NCBI GenBank assembly: GCA_031323845.1
Contig: JAVIYP010000003.1
Span: 11,007-75,006 of the forward strand
Direction: 5' to 3'
From: Bacteroidales bacterium
GTDB taxonomy: Bacteria > Bacteroidota > Bacteroidia > Bacteroidales > UBA7960
DNA: 64,000 nucleotides
The position numbers and the translations under genes were made by a program. The number at the start of each line of letters is the position of its first letter. Position 1 is the first letter of the stretch. Shown here piece after piece: positions 2,556 through 38,445 of this stretch. The notes under the pieces are model-generated. The model was not told where the DNA came from and did not search any database. It saw only the letters and a list, made by a program, of their open reading frames with translations.

Positions 2556-2667
2556 GCTAAAAGCCAAAGGCAAAAATGGAGAAAATGAAAAGTGAAAAGT
2601 GAAAAATACCTGTAACATGACAAATCTTCACATTTGCACATCTGCACATTTTCACATCTGCACATCT
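2556..2667 (-). repeat. Mosaic short-tandem-repeat element, inverted copy (GCAGATGT-type x6, TTTTCAC-type x4, CTTTGG-type blocks)
   Basis: The reverse complement reads AGATGTGCAGATGTGAAAATGTGCAGATGTGCAAATGTGAAGATTTG-TCATGTT..-TTTTCACTTTTCACTTTTCATTTTCTCC-..GCCTTTGGCTTTTAGC. This is collinear with 22543-22656, including the identical terminal GCCTTTGGCTTTTAGC. Confidence 0.85.
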
Positions 2668-2730
2668 ATTTTTTTCATGCATCTGTGTGTAATCTCGCAT
2701 GAAAAAAATTTCATGTAAATTTGGAGAAAG
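2664..2730 (+). promoter_or_regulatory. Conserved ~65-nt promoter module with a -7 box TAAATTTG (2716-2723) upstream of the EEP gene
   Basis: TAAATTTG matches the Bacteroidota TAnnTTTG -7 consensus and lies 22 nt before the ATG at 2746. The module is roughly four-fifths identical by eye to 37474-37540. It contains a perfect 12-bp inverted repeat, TTTTTTTCATGC (2669-2680) / GCATGAAAAAAA (2697-2708). Confidence 0.55.
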
Positions 2731-2745
2731 AAGTTTATAAGGCAG

Positions 2746-3792
2746 ATGCACAGGTTTATTAAAACGGTTTTCTATATCATGGCCCTGCCCCTGGCTGTGA
2801 TCCTGTTGATCCTCTTGCATGCTCATCTTACGCTTTATAATCCTCCGCCACAAAAAATACTCCATCAGGAAGTGGACGCAGTGCTGACCAATCATACCGA
2901 TACCTTTGGTCTGATGACCTGGAACCTGGGGTACGCCGGGCTGGGCGACGACATGGATTTCTTCTATGACGGGGGCCGGCAGGTGCGGACCAGCCGTGAA
3001 CGGACTATGGAGAACCTTTCGGCTATCGGGCAATTCATACAGTCGCATCAGCGCCTTGACTTTTTTCTTTTCCAGGAAGCGGACCAGGGATCCCGGAGAT
3101 CCTATCGTATCCACATGCCCGACAGTATTTCCCGGGTGCTGCCTGATGCCCATCTGGCTTTCGGCAAAAACTATGACGTCCGCTTTGTTCCTGTGCCCTG
3201 GTATGCGCCTATGGGCAGGGTATTGTCGGGCGTGCTGACGGCCAGTCACCCGAAACCTTCCGAAGTCGTGCGTTACAGCTACCCCGGCAGCTATCCCTAC
3301 CCCGGCAGCTTGTTCAACCTGCAACGATGCCTGTTGCTGAGCCGCTACCCCCTGACCAACGGAAAGGAGCTGGTACTGATAAACACCCATAACTCAGCCT
3401 TCGATGACGGTGATTTGCGCAAGAAGCAGATGGATTTTCTAAAAAACCTGTTGCTGGATGAATTTGAGAAAGGCAATTATGTGATCGCCGGCGGTGATTT
3501 TAACCAGTGTCCGCCTGCTTTTAAATCCCAATTTTCAGCAAACGTCTTTAATGATGAAAAGGTGATGTACATCCCCGGCGATTTCCTGGAGGACTGGCAT
3601 TTTGTGTACGACCCGGCAGTGCCGACCAACCGGCGTGTGGTGGCGCCTTATGATGCGGAAACCACCAAAACCACCCTGATCGATTTTTTCATCATGTCGC
3701 CAAACATCAAACCCCTCAGTGTTAAAGGGGTGCATCTTGGGTTCCGCCACAGCGATCACAACCCGGTGCTTTCCGAATTTGTATTGCTATGA
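2746..3792 (+). CDS. Endonuclease/exonuclease/phosphatase (EEP) family protein with an N-terminal membrane anchor
   Basis: It has a hydrophobic N-terminus (FYIMALPLAVILLILL), a C-terminal SDHNPV catalytic-His motif and a GGDFN motif, both typical of the EEP fold. Confidence 0.7.
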   Translation: MHRFIKTVFYIMALPLAVILLILLHAHLTLYNPPPQKILHQEVDAVLTNHTDTFGLMTWNLGYAGLGDDMDFFYDGGRQVRTSRERTMENLSAIGQFIQSHQRLDFFLFQEADQGSRRSYRIHMPDSISRVLPDAHLAFGKNYDVRFVPVPWYAPMGRVLSGVLTASHPKPSEVVRYSYPGSYPYPGSLFNLQRCLLLSRYPLTNGKELVLINTHNSAFDDGDLRKKQMDFLKNLLLDEFEKGNYVIAGGDFNQCPPAFKSQFSANVFNDEKVMYIPGDFLEDWHFVYDPAVPTNRRVVAPYDAETTKTTLIDFFIMSPNIKPLSVKGVHLGFRHSDHNPVLSEFVLL

Positions 3793-21836: not shown

Positions 21837-22493
21837 TTAAAACTCACCCTGCCTGTTAAAAACGTATTGCAAGATATTTGCTCCCATTTGCAGCGCCTTC
21901 AGCCGCACCTCTTCTGGATTTCCGTGAACGGCCTGATCTTCCCACCCGTTGCCCAGGTCTATTTCATAAGTATAATACAGTACAAGGCGTCCGTCGTAAA
22001 AAATTCCGAAACCCTGCGGAGGCTTTCCGTCATGCTCATGAATTTTTGGCGGGCCATCAGGAAACGAAAAGGACTGATGATATATGGGGTGGGAGAAGGG
22101 CAACTCAATAAGTTCATGGTCCGGGAAAATTTTTTTCAATTCTCTGCGGAAGTAGGGATCAAGGCCATAATTGTCGTCAACATGCAGAAAACCGCCACCT
22201 GTAAGGTAATTTCGGATGTTCTGCGCCTCCTGCGCGGAAAAAACCACATTGCCATGCCCTGTCATGTAAACAAAAGGGTAATTGAACAGCTGGGAGCTCC
22301 CTGCCTCTACGGTGGCGATGTGCTGACTTATCGTGGTGCCAATGTGTTCGTTGGCAAAACGCACAAGGTTGGGCAGGGCCGTCGGATTGGAATACCAGTC
22401 GCCACCACCGCGATACTTAAGCGTGGCTATCTGGTAGTGCTGCGCCTGAATGCCCATTGGCAGAAAAAAGAGTAGGATCAGGATAATTTTCAT
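21837..22493 (-). CDS. DUF4159 domain protein (secreted)
   Basis: It has a signal peptide, MKIILILLFFLPMGIQAQ, followed by ATLKYRGGGDWYSNPTALPNL, which is typical of DUF4159. Confidence 0.6.
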   Translation of the reverse strand: MKIILILLFFLPMGIQAQHYQIATLKYRGGGDWYSNPTALPNLVRFANEHIGTTISQHIATVEAGSSQLFNYPFVYMTGHGNVVFSAQEAQNIRNYLTGGGFLHVDDNYGLDPYFRRELKKIFPDHELIELPFSHPIYHQSFSFPDGPPKIHEHDGKPPQGFGIFYDGRLVLYYTYEIDLGNGWEDQAVHGNPEEVRLKALQMGANILQYVFNRQGEF

Positions 22494-22519: not shown

Positions 22520-22890
22520 TTGTCTGTGTTATGATTGAATTTGCAGATGTGCAAATGTGCAGATGTGCAAATGTGCAGATATGCCATGTTTGCAGAAATT
22601 TTTCACTTTTCATTTTTCATTTTTCACTTTATTAGCTTTTGGCCTTTGGCTTTTAGCAAGAAGATCTGAAACGAGCTTCCGCCTTCGAGCTATCTTGTTT
22701 CCTTCGGGCTCCTAATCCTTCAAAAAGAAAAAACCAACAAATAAACGATTAAACGATTAAACGATTCAACAATAGTTTTCTGACTTCTGACCTCTGGCCT
22801 TCGACTTCAGACTTCCTGGCAGATTTCTCACTACGTTCGAAATAAACCTCTTCCCGGGAGATCATGATCTACGAAATGCTCATTTCATGA
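22520..22890 (+). repeat. Full-length mosaic intergenic element made of five different short tandem-repeat blocks
   Basis: There are five repeat blocks. GCAGATGT-type x5 lies at 22543-22585, with an 8-nt period. TTTTCAC/T x4 lies at 22599-22630 and CTTTTGG/CCTTTGG/CTTTTAG at 22636-22656, both with a 7-nt period. AAACGATT x3 lies at 22743-22766 (8 nt). TTCTGAC-type x5 lies at 22778-22816 (7 nt). The element is flanked by promoter-module-like sequence at both ends. Confidence 0.9.
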
Positions 22891-22891
22891 A

Positions 22892-23599
22892 CTACAAAAG
22901 CCCGTTCGCGGTGTTCCACTGGATACAAAGCGCCAGGGCTGCCGTCTCGGTTCTTAAACGGTGAGCCCCCATGCTTATTGCCTTAAAACCACGATCCTGG
23001 GCCGCTGCAATTTCCGCTGCTGTAAAATCTCCTTCCGGCCCGACAAGTACCAGGGTGTTCCTGCCCGGCTCGCAGCTTTCTGACGTGCTGAACTTTTCGC
23101 CGCCGGCACAATGGGCGATCAGCGCAACTTCCGGCAATGGCTGACTGATAAACTCCGCCAGTGTATGCGCCGGGTTCAGCTTCGGCAGGTAAGCCCGGAG
23201 CGATTGTTTCATGGCCGCCACCATTATTTTTTCCAGCCGATGGGTTTTAAGCACACGCCGTTCGCTCTTTTCACAGATCAAAGGTGTGATTTCGTCCACC
23301 CCGCATTCCGTTGCCTTCTCCAGAAACCACTCAAAACGGTCGATGTTTTTGGTGGGTGCTACTGCAATATGAAGGTGAAAAGGCCTTTTTCCGAAGCCTT
23401 CCTGCCTGTGAACGATGGTTGCGGTAGTTTCCGCCGGGTGTACCTCAAGAAGGTGTGCCCTGCACCAGGTACCCCTTCCGTCAACAATACCGATCTCATC
23501 CCCGGGCTTCATACGCAACACCCGTGTGCAATGCCTGCTTTCATCGCCATCAAGGGTAATCACATCCCCGCTCAGATCCTTAACATAGAAAAGATGCAT
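22892..23599 (-). CDS. rsmE: 16S rRNA (uracil1498-N3)-methyltransferase
   Basis: It has a PUA-like N-terminus with the DGDESRHCTRVLRMKPGD motif and a SPOUT C-terminal domain with LVLVGPEGDFTAAE. Confidence 0.85.
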   Translation of the reverse strand: MHLFYVKDLSGDVITLDGDESRHCTRVLRMKPGDEIGIVDGRGTWCRAHLLEVHPAETTATIVHRQEGFGKRPFHLHIAVAPTKNIDRFEWFLEKATECGVDEITPLICEKSERRVLKTHRLEKIMVAAMKQSLRAYLPKLNPAHTLAEFISQPLPEVALIAHCAGGEKFSTSESCEPGRNTLVLVGPEGDFTAAEIAAAQDRGFKAISMGAHRLRTETAALALCIQWNTANGLL

Positions 23600-37267: not shown

Positions 37268-37473
37268 GGGCCTAAAGAAGAGGCTTTTGGGGCGTAAAAG
37301 CACCCGGTTGGACATCCCAACAGAGAAACAGTTTAATGTATTTCGCCTTCACACCTGTTCCGCTTTCGCGGGAAGCTTGGGCAAGGCTGAACTCCGGCTT
37401 CTGACTGTGGCATCAGGCATGTCAGCATAGCGGTTCCCGTTTTGTCATCAGGACAAAGGCACCGCCTGTCTTG

Positions 37474-37540
37474 CTCTATGTTTTTCATTTGTCTGTGTGT
37501 GCTTTCGAATGAATAAATTTCATGTACATTTGCAGGGAAA
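37474..37540 (+). promoter_or_regulatory. Conserved ~65-nt promoter module with a -7 box TACATTTG (37525-37532) upstream of fabD
   Basis: CTCTATGTTTTTCATTTGTCTGTGTGTGCTTTCGAATGAATAAATTTCATGTACATTTGCAGGGAAA aligns without gaps over the first ~44 nt, and with a 1-nt gap thereafter, to 2664-2730. The -7 box lies 37 nt before the ATG at 37570. Confidence 0.55.
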
Positions 37541-37569: not shown

Positions 37570-38445
37570 ATGAAAGCATATGTATTTCCCGGTCAGGGCG
37601 CGCAGTTTGTCGGTATGGGTAAAAACCTTTATGAAGACAATGCCGGGGCAAAAGAGATGTTTGAGAAGGCCAATGAAATCCTGGGTTTCCGGATCACCGA
37701 CCTGATGTTTGGTGGCACTGACGAGGATTTGCGGCAAACCAACGTTACCCAGCCAGCCATTTTCCTTCATTCGGTTATTCTGGCTCACACCCTTGGGGCT
37801 GATTTTCAGCCGGATATGGTTGCAGGCCACAGTCTGGGAGAGTTTTCTGCCCTGGTGGCTGCAAAGGCTTTATCGTTTGAAGATGGCCTGGTGCTTGTGT
37901 CAAAAAGGGCAGGAGCGATGCAGAAAGCCTGCGAAGTGAAGCCCTCTACCATGGCAGCCATCATCGGACTGGAAGATAAGGTGGTGGAGCAGGTTTGTGC
38001 CGGTATCTTTGATGTGGTTGTTCCTGCGAATTATAACAGTCCGGGCCAGTTGGTAATATCCGGCACCATACAGGGTGTGGACGTTGCCTGCGAAAAGTTA
38101 AAGGAAGCTGGTGCCAAACGCGCTCTTCCGCTGAAGGTGGGAGGGGCCTTTCATTCACCTCTCATGGAACCCGCCCGGCTGGAACTTGCCAAAGCCATCA
38201 ACGAAACCGCATTTAACGTACCCGTTTGTCCGGTATACCAGAATGTGGATGCTCAACCTTATACAGACCCTGAAAAGATCAAGGAAAACCTCATCGCTCA
38301 GCTCACAAATCCCGTCCGCTGGACACAAATCTCTGAAAATATGATCCGTGACGGGGCGAAGGTGTTTGTTGAAGTGGGCCCGGGTAAGGTGTTGCAGGGT
38401 CTGGTCAAAAAGGTAAACCACGAGGTTGACGCTTACAGCGCTTAG
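37570..38445 (+). CDS. fabD: Malonyl-CoA:ACP transacylase
   Basis: It has the active-site motif GHSLGEFSA, the N-terminus FPGQGAQFVGMG and a length of 291 aa. Confidence 0.95.
   Translation: MKAYVFPGQGAQFVGMGKNLYEDNAGAKEMFEKANEILGFRITDLMFGGTDEDLRQTNVTQPAIFLHSVILAHTLGADFQPDMVAGHSLGEFSALVAAKALSFEDGLVLVSKRAGAMQKACEVKPSTMAAIIGLEDKVVEQVCAGIFDVVVPANYNSPGQLVISGTIQGVDVACEKLKEAGAKRALPLKVGGAFHSPLMEPARLELAKAINETAFNVPVCPVYQNVDAQPYTDPEKIKENLIAQLTNPVRWTQISENMIRDGAKVFVEVGPGKVLQGLVKKVNHEVDAYSA

Follow-up and report, generated by a model that had tools for sequence, protein, structure and literature searches.

Correia (CREE) elements of Neisseria are short, non-coding, high-copy intergenic repeats with outward-reading promoters; they have 26-bp terminal inverted repeats, duplicate a TA target and carry sigma-70 boxes at their ends. 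The palindrome-associated elements derived from IS200/IS605, and the REP/REPIN-RAYT elements, have no terminal inverted repeats but carry subterminal hairpins at both ends. They insert beside a specific short sequence that resembles their own 3' end and exist as non-autonomous short copies. REPs are typically found at the 3' ends of genes.

Putative mobile promoters (PMPs) were described by Matus-Garcia, Nijveen and van Passel in 2012 as highly similar non-coding sequences upstream of non-homologous genes within one genome (summarised in PMC3575422). They were defined on positions -150 to -50 and come mostly in pairs; their authors propose a rewiring of transcription and state that the way of moving is unknown. 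Mobile promoters are known from sequence surveys, and their movement is described as an open question (PMC3575422). BrickBuilt, a MITE of Porphyromonas gingivalis, is strictly intergenic and species-restricted, is made up of a leader and a tail with an internal tandem repeat, and has promoter activity; it has small inverted-repeat ends, a 23-nt minisatellite and bidirectional promoters, and lies 49-591 nt from genes (PMC4596501). Hits of the Rfam family Flavo-1 (RF01705), for which no function is known, point both along and against transcripts in Flavobacterium (PMC9723704). The promoter consensus of Bacteroidota is TAnnTTTG at -7 with TTTG near -33, the -33 motif being weak or absent in some members of the phylum (PMC7366714), and the -7 box of Flavobacterium spans -12 to -5 (PMC9723704).

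The window analyzed here is a stretch of 64,000 nt (contig C111, positions 11007-75006) of a Bacteroidales metagenome-assembled genome (MAG), G000, whose assembly comprises 2.9 Mb in 121 contigs and is 96.65% complete. A preliminary description of the window proposed that a stretch of about 65 nt is shared by the regions upstream of fabD (37474-37540) and of a gene that it named EEP (2664-2730). The shared stretch is real: the two copies aligned in register with one indel and 52 of 68 identical columns (76%), or about 80% up to TTTG by a hand count. We propose, with a probability of roughly 0.7, that a non-coding repeat of about 139 nt (L+P), specific to one genus, lies in the -7 boxes of genes and that this module (P) forms its 3' part and bears its promoter. 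The features of the two copies are as follows:

2556..2667, no strand assigned: microsatellite arrays (ATCTGCAC-type and others) that adjoin the left edge of the EEP P module
2663..2723, plus strand: P module of the EEP copy, matching positions 78-139 of the family consensus at 90% identity and no longer similar past G2723
2669..2708, plus strand: P hairpin of the EEP copy, with perfect 12-bp arms TTTTTTTCATGC / GCATGAAAAAAA and a 16-nt loop
2693-2696, plus strand: -33-like TCTC of the EEP copy, with a 19-nt spacer to the -7 box
2716..2723, plus strand: -7 box TAAATTTG of the EEP copy, 22 nt upstream of the ATG at 2746
2746..3792, plus strand: EEP gene (name from the preliminary description), 348 aa, its ATG 22 nt past the box
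37457..37532, plus strand: diverged copy of L (3' part) and P at fabD, 78% identical to consensus positions 59-139, hairpin decayed
37503-37506, plus strand: -33-like TTTC of the fabD copy, with an 18-nt spacer to the -7 box
37525..37532, plus strand: -7 box TACATTTG of the fabD copy, 37 nt upstream of the ATG at 37570
37570..38445, plus strand: fabD, 291 aa, its ATG 37 nt past the box

Both copies end in TAnnTTTG, and the EEP copy carries a perfect inverted repeat, TTTTTTTCATGC-N16-GCATGAAAAAAA, as had been described; this repeat gave a DNA fold of -10.3 kcal/mol (z -3.6). The imperfect version reported for the fabD copy is present but decayed, folding no better than shuffles (z -1.0); this copy lost the repeat and kept the promoter boxes. 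The 3' block of L is still discernible at 37457-37480, and the fabD copy is an old L+P.

We built a first HMM from the two window copies alone and recovered 43 further places in the genome at E<1e-3; the motif search suggested at the outset thus uncovered more copies. One iteration yielded a second model with 61 matches in G000. Among these, 57 reach the -7 end, 32 being long and 25 short, and 10 of the 61 are less than 300 nt away from the end of a contig, which is what a repeat that breaks assemblies should show. The similarity of the two window copies is far beyond chance. Neither model matched the 'shortened version' claimed at 22520-22548 or the fragment claimed at 22870-22891. Neither has a gene to drive, since the gene next to the former (21837-22493, minus strand) is encoded on the other strand and the gene next to the latter (22892-23599, also minus strand) turns its 3' end towards it; the latter occupies the position where, on contigs C52 and C99, P follows the 'tail' of a microsatellite mosaic, and it may be a decayed remnant. 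A further proposed match, between the 14-mer CTTTCGCGGGAAGC and the reverse complement of 2517-2530 upstream of lolD, required an indel and fell to chance level: with up to 2 edits allowed, the genome contains 127 unrelated occurrences of the motif.

In every aligned copy the similarity stopped at the same base, the G of TGTAYATTTG, and the sequence 3' of this G was unique. P was followed by an unrelated gene or a tRNA in sense, mostly 12-57 nt away. An ATG-initiated ORF of at least 70 aa began within 60 nt 3' in sense in 33 of 48 evaluable copies, compared to 22% of random positions (p=1e-11), and within 200 nt in 43 of 48; the expected position upstream of start codons in sense therefore held for most copies, but not for all of them. 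Two of the exceptions precede tRNA genes, with tRNA-Arg(CCG) 9 nt and tRNA-Gln about 40 nt after the element. Ten sampled downstream ORFs belonged to ten unrelated Pfam families (metallo-beta-lactamase fold, TPR, Sua5/YrdC, peptidyl-tRNA hydrolase, PAPS reductase, shikimate kinase, PurE, inositol monophosphatase, tRNA editing domain and DsrC), the TPR gene lying 27 nt downstream of the copy at C60:57706, and dNK and ETF-beta were also confirmed among the genes downstream of copies. By their N-terminal sequences, we take other downstream genes to be rpoN, frr, hisS, pepD and others. The module stands in sense before more than 40 unrelated genes.

A right-anchored alignment of the copies resolved a unit of about 139 nt, with L as its left half and P as its right half; the module of about 65 nt is P, the 3' part of the unit. 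After a flanking TAnnTTT, the left part reads CTCCTGTAAAAAAGCATCTTCATTTTGT-TGAAAAAATAT-ACAAAATGAAGATGTACAGGAG-GAACCGCTTCGCTTTCC and the right part CATGAATTTTTTTCATGCG-TCTGTGTGTAATTT-CGCATGAAAAAAAATTCATG-TAYATTT, followed by G and unique flank. The left hairpin is formed by CTCCTGTA...TACAGGAG around CATCTTCATTTTGT / ACAAAATGAAGATG; the right hairpin is formed by CATGAATTTTTTTCATGCG and CGCATGAAAAAAAATTCATG with a 14-nt loop, and leads into the terminal TAYATTT. Between the hairpins lies a conserved block, GGAACCGCTTCGCTTTCC. Folded as single-stranded DNA, the consensus formed two long hairpins (-34.3 kcal/mol, z -8.8). The ends of the unit, CTCCTGTAAAAAAG... and ...AAATTCATGTAYATTT, have only TGTA in common by inspection after one is reverse-complemented; inspection of the consensus ends revealed no terminal inverted repeats of the kind that a classical DDE-type MITE has. 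A duplicated hairpin element in the trkA leader of another genome, with GAATTTTTTTCAT and a TTCATGTA-ATTT core, may be the same element.

The hairpins varied in a compensated manner. In an alignment of 36 full-length copies from six genomes, 90.6% of cells were paired, and 17 pairs had changed on both sides, compared to 9.0+-1.5 in shuffles (0 of 500); controls with slid partners reached at most 14 such pairs and 26 cells, against 78 cells observed. Because the copies are related, this covariation represents a handful of events and not 78 independent ones. The left stem occurs as CATCTTCATTTTGT/ACAAAATGAAGATG in G000, CACCAGCATTTTGT/ACAAAATGCTGGTG in G017 and G016, and GCAGCCATTTTGT/ACAAAATGGCTGC in G002, and the arms of the right stem vary between species with complementarity kept (CATGCG/CGCATG, CATTCG/CGAATG and CATGTG/CACATG). 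Since the arms change and yet stay complementary, the constraint on the hairpins is clearly on pairing, a pattern that does not point to a half-site recognized by a protein.

This result bears on the suggestion, also made in the preliminary description, that the module is a common operator for a dimeric regulator. In such a reading, the inverted repeat would bind a dimeric transcription factor, the downstream genes would form its regulon and the similarity would stem from selection on the site. The inverted repeat of 12-13 bp does overlap the -33 region in most copies, and the conserved unpaired block GGAACCGCTTCGCTTTCC could be a protein site. However, the downstream genes, tRNAs among them, are functionally unrelated and are not a regulon; identity extends over about 139 nt, loop and spacer bases included, with a sharp end; orthologous promoters in sister species lack the site; the arms differ between species with complementarity retained; and the fabD copy is without the repeat but has the promoter boxes. 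We consider an operator very unlikely indeed.

The arrangement of P is that of a promoter. TAYATTTG stands at the end of nearly every copy and conforms to the -7 pattern TAnnTTTG. Located 18-20 nt upstream of this box, at a distance set by the length of an A-run, is TTTC (TCTC in the EEP copy), compared to TTTG in the -33 consensus. P consists of a -33-like TTTC inside the hairpin, an A-rich spacer of 18-20 nt and TAYATTTG. In its layout it resembles a complete Bacteroidota sigma-A promoter and would be expected to act as one; from its sequence and position, it appears to supply the promoter of the downstream gene. The predicted transcription start falls in unique DNA, some 5 nt beyond the 3' end of the element, and the mRNA would then contain no element sequence.

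The stability and covariation of both hairpins could also point to a role in RNA, with L+P as an insulating terminator-plus-promoter cassette or with L as a small RNA. As a cassette, the P hairpin and the UAYAUUU after it would stop transcription from the split upstream box or the upstream gene shortly ahead of the new start. L starts directly after a -7-like box and so could be transcribed, and one copy, searched within 451 nt, gave a weak full-length minus-strand match to Flavo-1 (30.5 bits, E 1.4e-4). This score is below the gathering score of 42 bits, however, and there were 0 matches genome-wide at E<=1. The plus strand has no U-run of 4 or more after either hairpin and a terminator scan flagged neither, albeit with sigma-70 and terminator consensus scans being uninformative for Bacteroidota; the covariation fits DNA hairpins equally well. 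We regard this account as unlikely to be the main explanation, and an RNA role is compatible with L+P as a mobile promoter, as an added function. A search of Rfam found no match to the window at E<=0.1, and matches to miRNA families were generic artefacts of long hairpins.

We evaluated how widely the element occurs, all genomes in the analysis being MAGs. Nine of 18 genomes of the same genus carry it, with many copies in G016, G017, G002 and G012, and in 12 genomes from other families of the order the matches were limited to two short, marginal ones (E about 8e-4). When 185,579 species genomes were scanned for the exact pattern, it turned up in only two MAGs labelled 'Bacteroidales bacterium', from soda-lake sediment. 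A scan of JGI metagenomes found it on 18 contigs of one sediment data set (prefix SL_3KL_010_SED), which is apparently soda-lake sediment, and on one other contig. The copies in relatives and on metagenome contigs have the same anatomy and the same placement before genes. The element is confined to part of one genus from soda-lake sediments. A viral origin was considered, and the viral contigs scanned held no match.

Comparison with orthologous loci showed where the element sits. The module is absent upstream of fabD in all 17 sister-species orthologues with a recovered upstream region, the comparison that had been proposed for this gene; these mostly have a native box of the TACCTTTG type, and the folE-fabD synteny is kept in several. 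At rpoN, more than 20 sister species read stop codon ... CATTTTTATTATTTTTG / ATGTTAGG..., the slash marking the site of the element, and G000 reads ... TCTTTTTATTATATTT / L+P / G GTAAGG..., so that the native promoter is split at its box. The native leader of rpoN resumes right of the element with an offset of about 2 nt. The same arrangement was found at frr in G000 and at dNK in G012. G017 has a P module before both dNK and frr, with its end at the corresponding position and the leader conserved. The orthologous promoters of fabD, rpoN, frr and dNK in the sister species are native and, judged against them, the element is acquired at these promoters and not ancestral. The sister species are about 20% diverged and the junctions are therefore resolved to about +-2 nt.

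The flanks of the copies gave a consistent picture. By a hand tally, the left flank was exactly TAnnTTT abutting CTCCTGT in 12 of 19 full-length non-tandem copies, compared to a background of 0.39% per intergenic position (p~7e-25), and most of the remaining non-tandem left flanks ended in ATTT or AATT. The other full-length copies occupy the box of a P module that precedes them, forming tandem arrays (contigs C84, C93, C60/C89, C106 and C90, and also many sites in G017), in which the junction CATGTAYATTT / CTCCTGT occurs. Most copies lie between direct repeats of 7 nt, TAnnTTT; in 8 of 11 solo copies the 7-mers on the two sides were identical, the variable 'nn' included (hand tally). The right repeat was always TAYATTT, regardless of the native box in sister species. 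At rpoN and dNK the sister boxes are TATTTTTG, compared to TATATTT in the left box of the carriers, which could mean a different ancestral box or homogenisation of the two repeats.

Occupancy differed between genomes: rpoN and fabD are occupied in G000 only, dNK in G000, G012 and G017, frr in G000 and G017, and etfB in G000 and G012. At a gene of the MBL fold, the element is complete in G000, whereas G012 and G033 retain remnants, the G033 hairpin having collapsed. Orthologous copies resemble the consensus of their own genome, which suggests repeated re-insertion at occupied boxes, or conversion. Neighboring P copies in tandem often carry common locus-specific variants (loci L045, L048, L056 and L057), indicating that some copies arose by local duplication or conversion and not by fresh insertion. 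In look-ups by exact protein, polymorphism between empty and filled sites within a species was not seen; contigs from other samples carry the element and break inside it, and two of the look-ups gave no match.

The locus-specific variants common to neighboring tandem copies raise the possibility that the element is not mobile, has no insertion mechanism of its own and was spread by homologous recombination or gene conversion, with local duplication, between promoters that were already similar. Copies within a genome are indeed more alike than orthologous ones, as at dNK in G000, G012 and G017, which looks like concerted evolution, and no transposase was found. Against this, at the rpoN and fabD sites occupied in G000 only, the flanks match those of other copies in the box of 7-8 nt and nowhere else, a match too short for conversion of the RecA type; about 57 copies have their right boundary at exactly the same base; and the native box is kept on the left, as after insertion and not replacement. 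We consider spread by recombination alone very unlikely.

A second repeat accounts for some of the short copies. A microsatellite-bearing mosaic of about 210 nt interrupts the copy at C5:13407-13064: L is intact, P breaks off after its first bases (...CATGAATTTTTTTCAT) and resumes beyond the mosaic (TCATGTGTCTG...), with TCAT on either side of the mosaic. The same order of L, mosaic and P was found on contigs C93 and C95, with L decayed. In the copies examined in detail, the mosaic is a second repeat that landed in the P hairpin and not the carrier of the promoter. In the short copies, the EEP copy included, a P module is preceded on its left by DNA of other repeats: at the EEP copy, (ATCTGCAC)n arrays from the mosaic adjoin the T-run, and the arrays at 2556..2667 belong to this separate repeat, the nesting being demonstrated at the other loci. 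The proposal of a portable promoter carried by mosaic elements thus holds for the portable promoter but not for the vehicle, since the primary carrier is the compact two-hairpin L+P.

These results give the following scheme for L+P. New copies lie inside existing boxes, with the native TAnnTTT on the left and G and the native leader on the right, and the terminal box of the element takes the place of the gene's own -7 box. With a native TAnnTTT on the left and TAYATTT on the right, 7-nt direct repeats flank the element. These repeats might be a 7-bp duplication of a preferred TAYATTT target, or the product of recombination within a shared core, common to the target and the 3' end of the element; they would permit local tandem duplication and scarless loss. 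Later copies insert into the box of earlier copies to give tandem arrays, and where the separate microsatellite mosaic has inserted into the P hairpin, a short P module remains, as at EEP.

With two subterminal hairpins, a sequence-specific target and no terminal inverted repeats, the element resembles single-strand (HUH/Y1) or site-specific systems, and L+P does show the structural hallmarks of IS200/IS605 or REP/RAYT elements (subterminal hairpins, no terminal inverted repeat, a specific short flank). We searched for a Y1/HUH transposase as partner. The only match to PF01797 (Y1_Tnp) in G000 was a truncated 79-aa fragment with unrelated REP-like flanks. Across 25 genomes of the genus, the number of Y1 genes did not correlate with the copy number of the element, no element ends were found near the Y1 genes of the genus, and no Y1 gene was detected in the high-copy genomes G017, G002 and G012, a negative limited by the incompleteness of MAGs. 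A candidate autonomous version on contig C85, in which L with half of P (36435) and P (40820) lie 4.3 kb apart, was a rearrangement with no partner; the 4.3-kb interval holds a fabK-like gene, toxin-antitoxin-like ORFs and ISAs1/IS630-like fragments.

A tentative extension, which we hold to be possible and somewhat less than even in its chances, is that L+P represents a new class of 'promoter-homing' site-specific element with the sigma-A -7 box as its integration site and a novel mobilising enzyme that would be either host-encoded or lost from the MAGs. The strand melted by RNA polymerase might serve as a single-stranded target, and the box would be rebuilt with the 3' end of the element, so that the upstream half of a housekeeping promoter would be replaced and the gene would not be silenced.

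The case is unusually clean, with junctions placed to about 2 nt in a core box, 7-nt repeats, compensated hairpins and empty sister sites. In one lineage an imported promoter appears to drive about 60 genes, among them rpoN, frr, pth, hisS, fabD and tRNAs. If true, a selfish or domesticated repeat can rewire housekeeping transcription wholesale in Bacteroidota, whose promoters are of an unusual type. P would also be a compact candidate constitutive promoter for engineering in Bacteroidota. The carriers are uncultured organisms known as MAGs alone, and the analysis was at the level of DNA.

Compared to the described systems, the family is, by its sequences, a clear case of a putative mobile promoter. 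Copies that precede non-homologous genes agree at 80% or more of positions across 50 nt or more, the measure used for PMPs. The family differs from PMPs in being large (about 60 copies in 2.9 Mb), in its pair of covarying hairpins, in ending exactly in the -7 box, in targeting existing -7 boxes and in having a promoter of the Bacteroidota type. L+P is like Correia elements in apparently supplying promoters to neighboring genes, but it has subterminal hairpins in place of terminal inverted repeats and lies inside a promoter box of 7-8 nt. Likewise, it partly resembles BrickBuilt in supplying promoters, both being repeats of Bacteroidales; by description, BrickBuilt is nearer to the mosaic repeat nested in P than to L+P. 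The element is neither a Correia element nor BrickBuilt, differing in its ends, its target and its promoter type. Unlike REPs, it lies in promoters and in sense, and a cognate Y1 gene was not found in G000. Flavo-1 is a similar A/U-rich, long-hairpin, intergenic repeat of Bacteroidota, whereas the single L+P copy that matched it, at 30.5 bits, scored below 42 and partly through its flank, with none genome-wide and none in the window. What is new relative to the known kinds is the exact occupation of the -7 box, together with the apparent rebuilding of that box.

The hairpin in the right half (P) of the ~139-nt promoter element harbors, at one fixed site in its left arm, a ~210-nt microsatellite-bearing mosaic repeat (...TTTTTTTCAT / mosaic / TCATGCG...), and the insertion is bordered by TCAT at both ends. 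The mosaics therefore seem to have a target specificity of their own, namely the P hairpin. Three such loci were found in the source genome (G000), for which the microsatellite arrays at 2556-2667 of the window serve as the comparison region.

G000:C5:13407-13064, minus strand, mosaic in P
G000:C93:26180-26484, plus strand, mosaic in P
G000:C95:17070-16826, minus strand, mosaic in P

Consensus positions 60-77 hold the unpaired block GGAACCGCTTCGCTTTCC, which carries a tandem CGCTT repeat. This block belongs to neither hairpin nor to the promoter box, yet few parts of the element are as well conserved across six genomes. Nearly invariant, too, is the A6 bulge in the left hairpin.

G000:C93:26541-26558, example of the GGAACCGCTTCGCTTTCC block

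Two element copies in G000 lie directly upstream of tRNA genes, with only 9 nt separating the element from the 5' end of tRNA-Arg.

G000:C112:21031, element copy; tRNA-Arg(CCG) at C112:20947-21021
G000:C97:35395, element copy; tRNA-Gln at C97:35283-35354

We compared the dNK locus of two Logan contigs from other samples (L110 and L111, runs SRR32456906 and SRR32456884) with that of G000. The dNK gene and its leader were identical, but the P module, at positions 1-61 of the contigs, differed by 2-3 bases (TTTCACATGAAAAAAATTC vs TTTCGCATAAAAAAAATTC), being nearer to the upstream tandem copy of G000. The two contigs, which break off early, possibly represent a strain without the second insertion.

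A collapsed derivative 5' of the MBL-fold gene orthologue in the related genome G033 (L160) reads from the 3' block of the left half (L) to CATGAAAATTTTTCAT and then TTAAATTTG; its P hairpin appears to have been lost by deletion between the arms, with a -7 box retained. At G000:C85:36435-40877 (L193), a fabK-like gene has at its 3' end an L plus half-P copy with no gene to drive. A short P is located 4.3 kb from this copy, and the interval contains ISAs1- and IS630-like transposase fragments and toxin-antitoxin-like ORFs. This arrangement looks like an IS-mediated rearrangement across an element copy.

In sister species that lack the promoter element, the corresponding intergenic positions are taken up by other microsatellites, which form long arrays of 7-9-nt units of the TTAGAAA, TTTCGAC, TTTTGTC and TTAAACC types.

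fabD, frr and dNK upstream regions, microsatellite arrays in G010, G006, G007, G002 and G017 (L016, L022, L094, L099, L103, L078)

REP-like hairpins of G000 (GACCCCGCAGGGGTC and CTCCCTTCGGGG), which have no relation to the promoter element, precede an IS200/RAYT-like Y1 transposase that is truncated to 79 aa and lacks the HUH part.

G000:C22:54652-54891 (L001:1492-1731), truncated Y1 transposase fragment
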